Positions 28,727 through 49,185 of a stretch of DNA of 64,000 nt are shown in pieces (position 1 is the stretch's first letter; every line of letters begins with the position of its first letter). Below the pieces are notes generated by a model, which made no database searches, was not told the DNA's origin, and was given only the letters and a program-made list of their open reading frames with translations. Origin of the DNA: a phage; assembly GCA_009015555.1 (NCBI GenBank), contig GCA_009015555.1_3613.1. One strand, 5' to 3'. The position numbers were made by a program, and so were the translations under genes.

Positions 28727-29923
28727 ATGTTTCCTTTTGCTATTATTCCACCGTTTGTTCTTTCAGGCAAGGAAAAAATCAAGCAGTTTTCGGTTACGTC
28801 TTACGACAGTATGGTCCTGACTGATAAGGGGAACCTGTATGTTACAGGATTCAACCGGGTGGGTGAGCTTGGTGTTGGGGACACAACTAACCGAAATAAC
28901 CAATGGGTTTTGGTAATGCAGGACGTAAACTGGATTGCAAGCAACCGTGAGAAGCTGTGGGCAATTAAGAACGACGGTTCCATTTACACCCCGGATCTTC
29001 GGTCATCCAGTACAACTGCATATACTTGGCAAATCGACACGGTAGCACCTGGAAGTATTGGGGATTTGTCTGGGGATAATATCAAGGAGATTTACAGCGA
29101 CACAGAGAGCGTATATATCCTCAAAAAGGATGGTTCACTGTGGTATCTGGGAAATAACTCTAAAGGCCAAGCTGGAAACGGGGGAACTTCCTTAACCACA
29201 CGCTTTGTGAAGGTTTCAGATGGTGTGGTATCTTGGTCATCCAGTGGACCCACTGTTGTTTTCGTGAAAACAGACGGATACTTCTGGGGCTGCGGATCAA
29301 ATTCCCGAAATATCATTTCCTCTGCTGGCAGCAGTATCACAACCCCTACCCGGATGTTTAGCACCACCCACGCTGACGGAGGTGTTGTAACAGATTACAC
29401 GCTGGCCTCTGACCAAGCGTTTTTGATCAGATATAGTAATGGTAAATATCGTACCAAAGGTCTCAATATCGGACAACTTCCTTCAGGGGATGCAAGTCCA
29501 TACAATACCCTTACGGACGTTCCTGACGGATACACCCCCGGTGATGGAACGGAGCCTCTGGTAAGCAAAACAGGAGGGGTGTCGGCCTCTGGAACTTGGC
29601 CTAACTATAGTGGTCTTTTCTTCTACCATACGGGAGGGAAATTCATAGTCACTGGTCAAGCAAGCGGGAGAATTTCCGGGACCAGCCAAACCAGCGGTAC
29701 ACTCTCAAACTGGACCAATGTCGATGCGGCAAGTGACGAGATCCCATCTATCAAGGGAATGACCTTCGGACTGGGTTGGGTTGCTGCCTACAACGATACG
29801 CAGATTCTGTACTGGGGGTATACGGGAAACTCCTCTGCATATCCGGTTGTGGGATACCTAATGCCCGGACCTTCAAGGCTTGAATATGTGGCACGTTTTG
29901 CAACCCCGCCGATCGAGGCATAA
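28727..29923 (+). CDS. RCC1-like beta-propeller repeat protein (fibre-associated by position)
   Basis: 398 aa; repeated G.N..G.LG.G-type blades (GFNRVGELGVGD, GNNSKGQAGNG, WGCGSNS); RBS GGAGG. Confidence 0.5.
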   Translation: MFPFAIIPPFVLSGKEKIKQFSVTSYDSMVLTDKGNLYVTGFNRVGELGVGDTTNRNNQWVLVMQDVNWIASNREKLWAIKNDGSIYTPDLRSSSTTAYTWQIDTVAPGSIGDLSGDNIKEIYSDTESVYILKKDGSLWYLGNNSKGQAGNGGTSLTTRFVKVSDGVVSWSSSGPTVVFVKTDGYFWGCGSNSRNIISSAGSSITTPTRMFSTTHADGGVVTDYTLASDQAFLIRYSNGKYRTKGLNIGQLPSGDASPYNTLTDVPDGYTPGDGTEPLVSKTGGVSASGTWPNYSGLFFYHTGGKFIVTGQASGRISGTSQTSGTLSNWTNVDAASDEIPSIKGMTFGLGWVAAYNDTQILYWGYTGNSSAYPVVGYLMPGPSRLEYVARFATPPIEA

Positions 29924-36365: not shown

Positions 36366-36587
36366 TTAAAAATCAAACTGTTTAGTTAACTTTTTCATCG
36401 TGCCCTGATAAGACGGGTGTAGTTTGTAATTACACCCCTTCTCAACACACCAATCCGAAGCGGGGTTACGAAGCGCCACCAAACCACACCAGGCGCAGAC
36501 TTGCTTGCCTGCGTGTTTGTCCAGATAGAAGTGGTGACGCTCATAATGGTACTCTTCTTTCTGGCCCTTGTCTACCTTTTTCACCAT
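36366..36587 (-). CDS. small zinc-ribbon-like protein
   Basis: 73 aa; CAWCG...C..KGC cysteine pattern; RBS GGAGA. Confidence 0.5.
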   Translation of the reverse strand: MVKKVDKGQKEEYHYERHHFYLDKHAGKQVCAWCGLVALRNPASDWCVEKGCNYKLHPSYQGTMKKLTKQFDF

Positions 36588-37255
36588 CCGAATTTCTCCG
36601 TTGGGAGGTAAACTTGCTGCTGATTACGCAGAACCAGCCGCAGATCTTTTTGTGGCTCAAGATAGTCAGTCTCGGTCACACGAATAAGGTATCGCCAGCC
36701 CGGCGCACGGGCCTGCTGTGCGGTGTGAAGTTCCCACCAGTCCCATTCCACCACCTGCCCATCCGGTGCGTCGTAGGTGTCGAGAAGGCCCTTATTGTCC
36801 ATCTCACAAACCTGACTGGAGATTCCGGCGTACAGGTTCGGGAGGTTCTCCGTCACGAGGTTGATGTTTCGTGAGGCAATGAACTTCGTCGGGCAATCTC
36901 CGCCGACAACCAGCAGGTGGTAACGAGGTGAGTCGGAACCGATCTGCATGTGGATGTGCGGAGCGCCGGAGGCCGGAGACAGAGACTTCCCGCCACGAGG
37001 AACGCCGTCCGTGTGCCAACCAGGGATCGCAGGGATCATACCCGGCATTAGCATGTGGGTCTTCACGTCAACCACGATATGCTTTTTGTCGCCACGGATG
37101 TTCATCGCTTGCAGGGCGGCGCGGGTCACGTCCCCACCGAAGCGGAAAGCATCATCGAACGATGCGTTCCACAGGCCCTGTGTGTTCTTGATGTCGTCCT
37201 GAGACGGCTTCTCGATCTTATTGCCAAACTGTACTTCGCCACGGTTAAATTTCAT
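36581..37255 (-). CDS. Fe(II)/2-oxoglutarate dioxygenase-like protein
   Basis: 224 aa; PGWHTDG motif resembling the HxD iron-binding dyad of TauD-type dioxygenases, with downstream histidines; call from motif only. Confidence 0.35.
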   Translation of the reverse strand: MKFNRGEVQFGNKIEKPSQDDIKNTQGLWNASFDDAFRFGGDVTRAALQAMNIRGDKKHIVVDVKTHMLMPGMIPAIPGWHTDGVPRGGKSLSPASGAPHIHMQIGSDSPRYHLLVVGGDCPTKFIASRNINLVTENLPNLYAGISSQVCEMDNKGLLDTYDAPDGQVVEWDWWELHTAQQARAPGWRYLIRVTETDYLEPQKDLRLVLRNQQQVYLPTEKFGW

Positions 37256-37264
37256 TTCGTCACC

Positions 37265-37513
37265 TCATTGATATTGGGCTTTCCAGGTAATTCGTCCGGT
37301 CTTGCATACAAACTTGTCTTCAACAACCAAGCCGCTGAAGGCACCGTCCGGGGCGTTGACCACGGAGTTGACCATCCGCTGCTCCCCAGTCTTTACACAT
37401 CCGTCCTTGAAGTCTTGGTATTCCTGCATCAGGTAACCAACGAGACCAAGTATAATCAAACCGCCGATGAAAGTAAACCACAATTTGAACCAAAAGTTAC
37501 TATTTTTACGCAT
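37265..37513 (-). CDS. small membrane protein
   Basis: Track ORF 37265..37567 trimmed to ATG 37513; one TM helix (FWFKLWFTFIGGLIILGLVGYL). Confidence 0.45.
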   Translation of the reverse strand: MRKNSNFWFKLWFTFIGGLIILGLVGYLMQEYQDFKDGCVKTGEQRMVNSVVNAPDGAFSGLVVEDKFVCKTGRITWKAQYQ

Positions 37514-38892: not shown

Positions 38893-40902
38893 TTAAAAAA
38901 TCACTTTCAGTGTGCGGGTGAATGCACCAGTCACTTTCACCGTCAGTTCGTTGCGCTGGGTATCAGAGAAGCCCAGGCCAGACAGTTGTTCGTCAGAGGC
39001 CGGAACCTTCATCTTACCTGCCAGATGCTCGAACACTTTACGGTGCTCGTTCAGTTCGTTACGCAGATACTCGTTGTAGAAACCGCGAGTAGTGCCCGGC
39101 TGTTTTGCGCCTTCCAGCATGAAGAAGTAATGCTTGTTACCAATCGCCTGACCGTCCCAGTGGTTCGGAGAGTTCATGATTACAGACACCTTCTGGAACT
39201 GCTCGGTAGCCATTCCCCACACATCTTTAGACTGCTTGCTGTGTGGCAGTGATTCAATGACCTCCACGCCACCTTTACGGGTGTAACGGAAGGTGATTAC
39301 ATCAACATCGCTACCGCGAGACATCGCCTGTGGACGACTAAACTCCAGCGTTGTATTGCCATGCTCCAGTTCAAGAGTGAAGCCAACACGGTCACGAGAA
39401 CGAACATTGTACTGGTTCACCCACACCTTATAAATACCTTCTTCGATCTGACTCTCGCGTTCGAAGATGATGTTCTCAACAGGGTTCAGATCATCATGCT
39501 TATCCATGCCGTTCATATCCAGGTCCAGATACGCACCGCCACCACGACGATTACCGTAATACAGGTGCTCACCGCGAGGGGTACGCATATGCAGGTCAAG
39601 GTCATCGCCATTGTTCCACGCCAGAGAGATACGCAGGGCACCCTCCACTTTACCACCCGCTGCTTTCACACGCTCTTTAATAGAGTCAGTAACTTCACCA
39701 TTGTAAGACCAGGAGAAGTTGTTGTCCCACTTCAGCATGTTCGGAGCGTCCGGATATACCGGGGCCACCAGAGACACCAGGTTGCCAGTGTGGCGGTTCT
39801 CAACCAGCGCTTCGATGCTTGTTGCCGTCGGCAGAACTTCACGGATGAATTTCTCGATGGAGATCTCTTCCACGTTAGCCGGGCCTTTAACAGGCTTCTT
39901 CGCCCCTTTCAGCAGGTCACCGAACACATCTGTGGCCTTCTGGGTGTTGCGGTCAGCAAACAGCACGTTGTTAACGGTCAGGTCTTCCAGTACAGCGTAG
40001 CGGCGAGGCAGAGAGTCCATCAGACCCAGTTGCTGAACCTTCTCCTGTGCTTTCTTGATCATCGCTTCGGTAACCAGCGCAGTCGGGCGCTTGTAGTTTG
40101 CCGGGGCCATAACCTTTTCCCAGCGCTTAACCGCAGATTCGATATCCATACCGCCGGACAGATCTTCCAGCAGGTTGCCGATCGCAGTATTACGGAACTT
40201 ACCGCGCTCACCCAGCTTCAGGCCGTTTGTCCACACGAACGCTTCTTTACCTGCGGTATCCAGAGCATCGTATTTGTTCTTCAGGTCGAGGAACAGGTTG
40301 ACGCTGGCGATCTGCTCGTTACCACGGTACAGGGAACCCTGTGCGTTCAGTTCGATGATCGTTTCTGCTGCGTCGGCAGTCAGTTCAATCAGGCTACGCT
40401 CCAGAACCTGCACGTTGCTACGAGAGCGGCTCAGGGCAGTTGCGATATCTGAGTTTGGCTTCACGAAGTTCTGCGGCAGAACGGCGTGGAAGTGGTTATA
40501 CGTCACGACCTGATCGTTTTCCAGAACGTTGCTTTGTGCCGTACCCACCTTAGTGGTGAAGTGCAGGAACTCGTCAGCGATCGGTGCTGCATGGATCAGC
40601 TTGGACAGCGAGTCAACCACCGCCTGGTAGTAACCCGGCACCTTGATGTCCCAGATGGAGACACGCTTACCGTCAACGAAGGTCACCACACGACCAACAT
40701 CACGGATGAATTGCTTACAGCAGTTGCAGTCGTACTCACGGCGCTCACGGAACATCAGGTTGGTGCCCGCCGGGAATGAATCGAGATAATGGTTCCACAC
40801 GACGTCTTTGTCAGCAGCCACTTCAAACAGGCCAGTTTTAGCCATCTTGGTCAGTTGTTTCTGGATAGCCAGTACGAAGTTATGATAGTTGTTAGTGCTC
40901 AT
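38893..40902 (-). CDS. large conserved hypothetical protein (669 aa)
   Basis: Long ORF with RBS GAGGAG; bounded by a promoter-terminator unit downstream; no catalytic motif recognised. Confidence 0.6.
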   Translation of the reverse strand: MSTNNYHNFVLAIQKQLTKMAKTGLFEVAADKDVVWNHYLDSFPAGTNLMFRERREYDCNCCKQFIRDVGRVVTFVDGKRVSIWDIKVPGYYQAVVDSLSKLIHAAPIADEFLHFTTKVGTAQSNVLENDQVVTYNHFHAVLPQNFVKPNSDIATALSRSRSNVQVLERSLIELTADAAETIIELNAQGSLYRGNEQIASVNLFLDLKNKYDALDTAGKEAFVWTNGLKLGERGKFRNTAIGNLLEDLSGGMDIESAVKRWEKVMAPANYKRPTALVTEAMIKKAQEKVQQLGLMDSLPRRYAVLEDLTVNNVLFADRNTQKATDVFGDLLKGAKKPVKGPANVEEISIEKFIREVLPTATSIEALVENRHTGNLVSLVAPVYPDAPNMLKWDNNFSWSYNGEVTDSIKERVKAAGGKVEGALRISLAWNNGDDLDLHMRTPRGEHLYYGNRRGGGAYLDLDMNGMDKHDDLNPVENIIFERESQIEEGIYKVWVNQYNVRSRDRVGFTLELEHGNTTLEFSRPQAMSRGSDVDVITFRYTRKGGVEVIESLPHSKQSKDVWGMATEQFQKVSVIMNSPNHWDGQAIGNKHYFFMLEGAKQPGTTRGFYNEYLRNELNEHRKVFEHLAGKMKVPASDEQLSGLGFSDTQRNELTVKVTGAFTRTLKVIF

Positions 40903-42104: not shown

Positions 42105-42131
42105 TAATAAAAAACCGCCCCGAAGGGCGGT
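42105..42131 (-). terminator. rho-independent terminator
   Basis: ACCGCCC-TTCG-GGGCGGT stem followed by TTTTTATTA on minus strand. Confidence 0.55.
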
Positions 42132-42757
42132 TATCTTTTCTTGGTTTCAATCTTGATTGAGCGCATCAAGCACCGGGAATGATACAGAGCTTGGTCTTGA
42201 GAACCGCCGATCATGAGATTAAAACTTGTCCCGTCTGCAAGATCTGGGATGGCTTTGTTGTTTATCGTTGGCGATCCATCAACAGTTACAGTGAGGCTCT
42301 TGTTAATAGACTCGAAGATTATCTCGTGATAAACACCTTTTGTCACGGCGGGGCCTGCATTGACCCTGCTGGAATTATACCACCAGTCAAGGTATCCGTT
42401 ACTCAGCATGTTGGCGATCCAAGTGCCAGACCCGTTTCCTTGAATAGATCTCCCCACAAATATCATTGGGTTTGTTGCCGCTGCCTTAACCTTCAGATTC
42501 ATGGTGATCTTCCAGTCATTGTTTAGCAGCTTGTCTGGGGTGGTCCCTCCGCTCAATGCCCCATCTCCAACAAAATCCATCGCTGGCAGGCCCTCGTCGA
42601 GAACCGTCGCGGATGTTCCGGCGGTCCTGTTGAACGTTATCCCGCGATCAGTGAATCCTGAGAATGTGCCCAAGGGATACTTGGTGAAGTCCAACTCGAA
42701 CCAAGTGCTGTACTTTTTCGGATCTCCGCCCCCCGGCAGTACCAACATCTCTTGCAT
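42131..42757 (-). CDS. N-tag family paralog B: ConA/LamG-like jelly-roll protein (N-terminus MQEMLVLPGGG)
   Basis: 208-aa ORF with RBS GGGGG; LamG-like pattern; shared N-terminal motif. Confidence 0.55.
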   Translation of the reverse strand: MQEMLVLPGGGDPKKYSTWFELDFTKYPLGTFSGFTDRGITFNRTAGTSATVLDEGLPAMDFVGDGALSGGTTPDKLLNNDWKITMNLKVKAAATNPMIFVGRSIQGNGSGTWIANMLSNGYLDWWYNSSRVNAGPAVTKGVYHEIIFESINKSLTVTVDGSPTINNKAIPDLADGTSFNLMIGGSQDQALYHSRCLMRSIKIETKKR

Positions 42758-48531: not shown

Positions 48532-49185
48532 TTAATCAAGAACAAATGGTGCCGTCGGCACTGAGAAATTACCGTCGTAACGGGCCACCTTGCTGATACG
48601 GAATTGGTCAAGCCCACCAAACATAGTTTGTTCGCCGAAGCCGATTCTTGCAAAACGGCTTACGTCACTCCACCCTCCGGAAGCAAAGGACGTGGTGGTT
48701 GGTGCCACTTTACCGTTCAGATATAACTTCGTGACTCCCCCTTTGCTCACAATAGCCACATGTGTCCAGTTGGAAAGAGGCCAGTAGTTGGTACTAAAGC
48801 TCAAATAATTCTTCTGGTCCTGAAGATAAACCACACTTTGGTAAACCTTGAGGCAACTCTGAGTACCTGTCCCAAAATACATCCACCAGGAAGAGGCAAC
48901 TGAAGAGTTTCTTGACCAAAATTCGATAGTGAACTCGTCCTCTGGTTTGAAGACGAGATCTGTTTTCTCTGTCGCCATCATCTCAAAATAGCTGGCAGTG
49001 TTAGTACAGTCAAAGTATTTGTTGTTGAATTTTCCGTAACTTCCGGTGCCTACTGTTGCTACTTTTGAAAATTGCCGGGTAGGCTTGGCAACATCAATAC
49101 CTCCCTTGTCTGCTTGCAGGAGAAGGAGAGTTTTATCTCCCTTCATGCCGCCGCCTGCACCAGCCGCCAATAGGATTTCCTGCAC
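48532..49185 (-). CDS. N-tag family paralog A: ConA/LamG-like jelly-roll protein (N-terminus MQEILLAAGAGGG)
   Basis: 217 aa; GTG start with AAGGAG; LamG-type pattern (W.HVAIV...LYLNGK...DQFRISKVARY). Confidence 0.6.
   Translation of the reverse strand: MQEILLAAGAGGGMKGDKTLLLLQADKGGIDVAKPTRQFSKVATVGTGSYGKFNNKYFDCTNTASYFEMMATEKTDLVFKPEDEFTIEFWSRNSSVASSWWMYFGTGTQSCLKVYQSVVYLQDQKNYLSFSTNYWPLSNWTHVAIVSKGGVTKLYLNGKVAPTTTSFASGGWSDVSRFARIGFGEQTMFGGLDQFRISKVARYDGNFSVPTAPFVLD

Follow-up and report, generated by a model that had tools for sequence, protein, structure and literature searches.

What does a strongly conserved open reading frame (ORF) of 224 amino acids (aa) do for the phage that carries it, and does it point to modification of the phage's own DNA? 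We examined a 64,000-nucleotide stretch of phage DNA (the window; NCBI GenBank assembly GCA_009015555.1, contig GCA_009015555.1_3613.1). A model's annotation of the letters (the sequence-only reading) had marked the ORF at 36581–37255 as a possible Fe(II)/2-oxoglutarate (2OG) dioxygenase, because its PGWHTDG peptide resembles the iron-binding HxD dyad of TauD-type enzymes, and had seen in it a hint of DNA modification. Residue conservation and predicted structures indicate that the gene probably encodes a stand-alone, single-domain Fe(II)/2OG-dependent oxygenase. Its family is large and phage-restricted. The family is undescribed, in that we found no Pfam or NCBIfam model, no sequence-detectable solved relative and no paper for it; enzymes of this kind are themselves very well known. 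The proposed tie to DNA modification was not supported.

Five invariant residues in a TauD-type pattern

We evaluated conservation in 122 representatives at most 50% identical pairwise (mean column identity 20%, every column checked) and in 356 full-length homologues reaching down to about 25% identity. H81, D83, H177, R188 and R192 were the sole invariant columns among the representatives and were each present in 356/356 full-length homologues, giving the HxD…H facial triad of an iron enzyme. An HxD tripeptide alone is trivial by chance; PGWHTDG is significant because it is conserved across the family, and it contains the same W-H-T-D as TauD. The histidines downstream of it, which the sequence-only reading had also invoked, are H100, H102, H113 and H177. 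That part of the claim stood for the invariant H177 and not for the others, H113 being kept in 147/356 homologues, all close relatives, and H100 and H102 being variable. R188 and R192 lie 11 and 15 residues past H177, so that strand VIII carries a basic residue about 9–15 residues after the distal histidine, and residue 194 is a threonine or serine in 343/356 homologues.

Compared with the E. coli TauD sequence (W-H99-T-D101…T126…H255-x10-R266-x3-R270), the protein shows the same motif, HxD…T/S…H-x10-13-R with a second arginine at +4 (W-H81-T-D83…T123…H177-x10-R188-x3-R192). The spacers differ, with 39 residues from D to T against 24 in TauD, and 93 from D to H against 153. TauD T126 donates a hydrogen bond to the C5-carboxylate of 2OG, and by analogy T123 is its possible equivalent. 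The His-Asp-His positions of TauD are Fe ligands, its R266 anchors the 2OG C5-carboxylate and its R270 the substrate anion, while R310 of ScoE binds the substrate carboxylate (PMC7949033, PMC9304159).

Longer family members had either N-terminal extensions without a Pfam domain or tandem duplications, and neither gave a functional clue. Three members of 455–482 aa (P0216, P0255 and P0269) are tandem duplications of the domain. In these, copy 1 keeps PGWHTD…LHR…R and copy 2 is without HxD (W-R-T/S-G). Judged from these sequences, the retention of HxD…H…R in copy 1 versus its loss in copy 2 is an internal control for the putative catalytic residues, and copy 2 looks like a pseudo-enzyme partner. 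The start of P0255 resembles a signal peptide (MFFRILVLMSISACLSHSTAHA), an unexpected feature in an enzyme that depends on 2OG.

A predicted double-stranded beta-helix

The predicted structures contain a double-stranded beta-helix (DSBH, or jelly-roll) core. We assigned strands by DSSP on two predicted models, from shallow and deep alignments. Strand I spans residues 59–69, the strand II bridge ends at H81, strands III and IV span 111–118 and 123–126, a helical insert follows at 141–154, and strands V (160–162), VI (167–172), VII (177–179, with H177) and VIII (186–196, with R188 and R192) complete the core. This strand order matches the canonical II/VII/VIII placement of the 2-His-1-carboxylate triad and the 2OG arginine. 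From the models we infer that H81, D83 and H177 would converge in three dimensions on one metal site. The sequence-only reading had named the lack of a DSBH fold or of a conserved distal histidine as grounds for giving it up; we looked for both, and the protein has the fold in prediction and the histidine throughout the family. The C-terminal tail, which could serve as an active-site lid or an oligomer contact, had a predicted local distance difference test score (pLDDT) of 50–64 with the shallow alignment and 77–92 with the deep one.

PhyH-like enzymes were the best structural neighbours of the 224-aa protein. The best oxygenase matches in Foldseek were free-amino-acid hydroxylases, with HalD also listed. 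A fold search of BFVD returned uncharacterised phage proteins, followed by cyanophage oxygenases (E about 1e-3).

A real gene in a large phage-restricted family

The ratio of non-synonymous to synonymous substitutions (dN/dS) of the ORF was 0.02–0.09 against close relatives, a sign of strong purifying selection and therefore of a protein-coding gene under constraint. Its Shine–Dalgarno sequence, this ratio and the homologue counts establish it as a real gene. Homologues around the query at E≤1e-3 formed 402 clusters at 90% identity, and the family at the same threshold formed 886 clusters at 50% identity. A distant branch comprised 1,842 clusters at 90% identity, and the family overall about 1,800–2,200. 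The only named family matched by the protein was PHROG 1843 ('unknown function'), over its full length (E 1.3e-80, residues 1–224 against profile positions 5–222 of 222).

The family was present in 473 of 50,697 GenBank phage records (about 1%), across three bacterial phyla, and every copy in them was labelled 'hypothetical'. Carriers included Certrevirus, JS98/Dhakavirus T4-like coliphages, T4-like phages of Aeromonas and of Serratia/Yersinia, and phages of Mycobacterium (PegLeg-type), Gordonia and Bacillus. The window itself is about 95.6% identical to Cronobacter phages PBES 02, CR8 and CR3 (Certrevirus, Vequintavirinae), whose records label every gene of the corresponding region 'hypothetical protein'. 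Copies 50–55% identical span lytic Gram-negative myoviruses, T4-like phages and temperate Bacillaceae prophages; those of Lysinibacillus and Peribacillus, 53–56% identical to the query, lie inside prophages between replication genes and terminase. Five distant members on contigs of 190–320 kb were all in large T4-like or jumbo phages. A search for cellular, non-phage homologues yielded none, with 7/7 inspected contexts being prophages or large phages. A literature search likewise found no paper on this family, nor under RB69 ORF132c; the sole match to 'ORF132c' was a different gene, in Aeh1.

The ten commonest genera in the carrier names (Escherichia, Aeromonas, Mycobacterium, Klebsiella, Gordonia and others) are aerobic or facultative hosts, with 19 further names unlisted. 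Such hosts fit an O2-dependent enzyme, a correspondence confounded by sampling bias in phage collections.

Genome context and the question of DNA modification

On the minus strand the gene is flanked by small hypothetical genes; more distant genes there encode DNA polymerase A and two helicases, one DnaB-like and one PIF1-like. Capsid, neck and baseplate genes occupy the plus-strand half of the window. The Shine–Dalgarno sequence of the oxygenase ORF overlaps the TGA stop (37265–37267) of an upstream small ORF, so the two are tightly coupled. The next ORF downstream, which is Cys-rich, overlaps the 3' end of the oxygenase gene by 7 nucleotides (nt) and is for that reason probably translationally coupled to it; its family, PHROG 7020, was absent from the neighbour families common to at least two lineages.

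We then asked whether any partner recurs beside the gene. Neighbours were clustered by BLAST using the ORFs of 80 IMG/VR loci together with annotated phages and prophages, and no neighbour family was common to more than 3 of 25 independent lineages of the gene. The enzyme would therefore work alone. That the gene is solo and occurs in phages whose DNA chemistries differ widely, as well as in temperate prophages, argues against a dedicated role in DNA hypermodification. The methyltransferase-like gene on which the sequence-only reading had partly built its DNA-modification proposal could not be recovered: no methyltransferase Pfam domain was found in 30 scanned window ORFs (most of those of at least 170 aa plus four shorter ones, with seven large structural-side ORFs left out), and no window ORF of at least 100 aa contained a DPPY-type or S-adenosylmethionine-binding motif. 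Neither a TET/JBP nor an AlkB signal was found, no partner gene is conserved and the gene is spread over unlike phages; the proposal was not supported.

Two kinds of genes lay near homologues in some lineages, never in an operon with them. Nicotinamide adenine dinucleotide (NAD)-salvage genes (NAMPT/NAPRTase, NMNAT-Nudix and once PARG) occurred within 7–10 kb of the homologue in about 7 of 31 lineages (L168, L169, L171, L156, L160, L101 and L106), and in L171 NAMPT was two small genes away. This proximity may arise from an accessory region that large phages have in common, or may hint at the substrate. RNA-repair and tRNA-processing genes (RtcB, a PF09414 RNA ligase, CCA-adding/PolyA_pol, TROVE/Ro and Thg1) were near members in about 8–9 lineages, each type in one or two lineages only (L086 of PegLeg, L087 of Smoothie, L003, L100, L164, L172, L150 and L168). 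Adjacency to RtcB, seen in two actinophages, was considered as a functional clue and set aside, being confined to 2 lineages. The window contained no NAD-salvage, RNA-repair or tRNA genes.

A consensus scan found seven promoter-like sites against 3.7 expected. The strong hairpin terminator and the promoter-like site that follows it (38428–38360), a consensus match, probably mark the start of the minus-strand unit containing the oxygenase gene. The promoter-like site suggests early transcription by host RNA polymerase, and the hairpin together with the two near-consensus promoters on the minus strand suggests that the early region is split into several units served by that polymerase.

Weighing the oxygenase assignment against other readings

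Several results weigh against the assignment. We searched Pfam, NCBIfam and PDB with the single sequence and with three family profiles (A1, A2 and A3), and no match was significant, the best having an E-value of 0.39, at chance level. The single sequence had no match in Pfam-A even at E≤10 and none in NCBIfam. Profiles A2 and A3 were also run through hhalign against the single E. coli AlkB sequence, against 78 aligned AlkB sequences drawn from genome contigs, against 22 aligned cyanophage sequences of the TauD family (the seed of this alignment hits PF02668 at 7e-10) and against four aligned PF13759 sequences; probabilities against the AlkB, TauD-family and PF13759 profiles were at most 1.1%. 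With no significant sequence link to known 2OG oxygenases, the assignment rests on predicted structures and motif logic. Moreover, R192-x-S/T194 also fits the classic RxS motif, which makes the 2OG-binding arginine ambiguous. The cupin/DSBH fold also serves non-oxygenases, and the top PDB match in Foldseek was one of these, the cupin YjgK (E 2.5e-4), with lyxose isomerase, acireductone dioxygenase and dTDP-sugar isomerase also in the match lists. These structural matches, and the failure of every sequence method to confirm a 2OG-oxygenase ancestry, would favour a non-oxygenase cupin, whether an isomerase, a metal or ligand binder, a sequestering protein or a catalytically dead scaffold. We regard such a protein as very improbable. 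The sub-threshold matches all point the same way, toward 2OG oxygenases: BesD lysine halogenase at E 0.39, over the distal histidine and arginine; gamma-butyrobetaine dioxygenase at E 1.1, spanning the segment with H177; Pfam HalD (PF23169) for 2 of 42 family members at E 0.0012; and PF13759, matched by the degenerate copy of P0269. The sole informative hhalign fragments placed H177 and R192 on the distal histidine and RxT of the PF13759 family. Membership in the TauD/TfdA family (PF02668) was rejected, there being no Pfam match at E≤10, an hhalign probability of 0.2% and closest structural neighbours that are not TauD-like. The proposed TauD-type resemblance thus holds for the identical local motif and fails as family membership by Pfam, profile–profile comparison and fold ranking. 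Membership in the PhyH family (PF05721) was also rejected, with no Pfam match at E≤10.

If the protein is an oxygenase, its prime substrate could be something other than a small molecule. One possibility is a hydroxylase of a universally conserved host protein (for example a ribosomal protein, EF-Tu or RNA polymerase), acting in host takeover in the manner of the prolyl hydroxylases PHD/PPHD or the ribosomal oxygenase YcfD. We consider this unlikely: there was no match to PF13640 or to JmjC/cupin_4/8, the H-x10-R-x3-R pattern, whose second arginine is also invariant, is that of the small-molecule enzymes TauD and ScoE and not that of P4H, the nearest oxygenases in Foldseek act on free amino acids, and 224 aa leave no extra substrate-recognition domain. 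A nucleic-acid oxygenase is what the sequence-only reading had in mind; it would be either an AlkB-like enzyme that repairs alkylation in phage DNA or RNA by oxidative demethylation, or a TET/JBP-like one that hydroxylates bases in DNA or tRNA. The RNA-repair genes near some members are never conserved across lineages, and none lies in the window. AlkB (PF13532) and TET/JBP (PF12851) membership were both rejected, with no profile match at E≤10 and hhalign probabilities below 1% against the 78-sequence AlkB profile. In the structural ranking, dozens of hydroxylases of small molecules and of proteins placed as high as the AlkB-type structures or higher, and the top 60 contained none of TET/JBP type. 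The protein is slightly acidic (isoelectric point 6.4), no methyltransferase, glycosyltransferase or other DNA-modification partner was nearby here or in other lineages, and copies 50–55% identical reside in phages unlikely to share one DNA modification. On this evidence an enzyme acting on nucleic acids is improbable.

Proposed mechanism

For the Fe(II)/2OG oxygenase that we favour, we infer metal and 2OG binding, chemistry, arginine roles, substrate class and expression timing as follows. Fe(II) would be held by the facial triad of H81, D83 and H177. 2OG would chelate the iron, with its C5-carboxylate salt-bridged to R188, probably with help from T123. O2 would then drive oxidative decarboxylation of 2OG to succinate and CO2, generating an Fe(IV)=O species that would hydroxylate or otherwise oxidise the prime substrate. 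R192, four residues past R188 on the same strand, may bind an anionic group of that substrate (a carboxylate, sulfonate or phosphate), a role suggested by its position, which equals that of TauD R270 and ScoE R310. Anion binding by R192 would make small anionic metabolites (amino or organic acids, nucleotides) the likeliest substrate class, and we would rank such a metabolite above a host protein, and a host protein above nucleic acid. The gene would be expressed along with neighbouring genes, as part of an early/middle unit on the minus strand, and would need no dedicated partner gene.

The substrate is probably common to all bacteria, because copies in lytic Gram-negative phages and in Bacillaceae prophages are 50–55% identical and no partner gene accompanies them. 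We tentatively suggest that this protein is the founding member of a phage-specific Fe(II)/2OG oxygenase clade, and that it acts by oxidation on a host metabolite, signalling molecule or macromolecule conserved in all hosts, in host takeover or counter-defence. To our knowledge, phage–host chemistry in which a stand-alone 2OG oxygenase inactivates or rewires a host molecule by oxidation has not yet been documented.

Comparison with known systems

The structurally closest PhyH-like oxygenases (ColD, EasH, EvdO2, AusE/AndA, AsqJ, EctD, SadA, GriE and proline hydroxylase H11) share 8–14% identity with the protein at TM-scores of 0.3–0.4. They are 30–60 residues longer, and they are biosynthetic or cellular, whereas the present family is phage-restricted. 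BesD/HalD (PF23169) is the sole known family touched by sequence methods, with all matches sub-threshold; these halogenases carry HxG/A, whereas the invariant HxD of the present family is of the hydroxylase type. The auxiliary '2OG-Fe(II) oxygenase' genes of cyanophages and pelagiphages (PF13759/PF13640) and the PhyH/TauD genes of cyanophages likewise encode stand-alone phage 2OG oxygenases with no substrate assigned; phage P-HM1 encodes a TauD-type enzyme as well as a PF13759 one. By the hhalign values above, the cyanophage and pelagiphage oxygenases are separate sequence families, and Pfam already recognises them but not the present family. The phages that carry them infect marine cyanobacteria or SAR11, whereas the hosts of the present family are Enterobacteria, Aeromonas, Actinobacteria and Bacillaceae. 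AlkB and TET/JBP differ in having no sequence or profile similarity to the protein, and their DNA-modification gene context is lacking around it.

Features of the window

Table 1. Coordinates of the oxygenase gene, its putative functional residues and flanking elements in the window
Feature	Position	Strand	Remarks
224-aa ORF	36581..37255	minus	ATG at 37255-37253, then stop; predicted Fe(II)/2OG-dependent oxygenase, PHROG 1843 member
Shine–Dalgarno GAGGTGA	37260..37266	minus	5 nt 5' of ATG; read from sequence
PGWHTDG, residues 78-84	37004..37024	minus	H81 (37013-37015) and D83 (37007-37009), proposed proximal iron ligands; end of DSBH strand II
T123	36887..36889	minus	Strand IV (123-126); T in 347/356
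H177	36725..36727	minus	Proposed distal iron ligand; DSBH strand VII (177-179); 356/356
R188-x3-R192-x-T194	36674..36694	minus	DSBH strand VIII (186-196)
C-terminal tail, residues 197-224	36584..36667	minus	R210, Q212, Y216 conserved; G223-W224 end almost invariant
73-aa Cys-rich ORF (…CAWCG…CVEKGC…)	36366-36587	minus	PHROG 7020, function unknown
Hairpin terminator	38428-38407	minus	Perfect 9-bp GC-rich stem; reported on both strands, T-tract on minus only
Sigma-70-like promoter TTGACT-17-CATAAT	38388-38360	minus	Consensus match; upstream of oxygenase transcription unit
Near-consensus sigma-70 promoters (11/12 matches)	38892-38864, 35120-35091	minus	Consensus scan

Beyond these features, a 669-aa protein of PHROG 1735 (E 4.5e-289; 38893–40902, minus strand) lies just upstream of the oxygenase transcription unit. 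It is large and conserved, of unknown function and without a Pfam domain, and is called a 'coil containing protein' in phage P7_Pc. Two paralogous-looking proteins with Laminin_G_3 / concanavalin-A-like lectin domains are encoded inside the replication module at 42131–42757 and 48532–49185, both on the minus strand, one of them directly downstream of DNA polymerase A. The PHROG label 'major tail protein' given to one of the two looks like a misannotation because of its position. A protein of 398 aa containing RCC1-like repeats (beta-propeller) is encoded on the plus strand at 28727–29923, where the block of structural genes ends.

Significance

Among phage protein families that still carry the label 'hypothetical', this is one of the larger, with members in the well-studied JS98-group T4-like coliphages and the PegLeg-like mycobacteriophages. 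For annotation, the inference that the phage modifies its own DNA is corrected as attractive yet unsupported. The probable Fe(II)/2OG oxygenase assignment, with five named candidate catalytic residues, makes the family a directly testable enzyme, and identifying its substrate could uncover a new form of chemical manipulation of hosts by phages.
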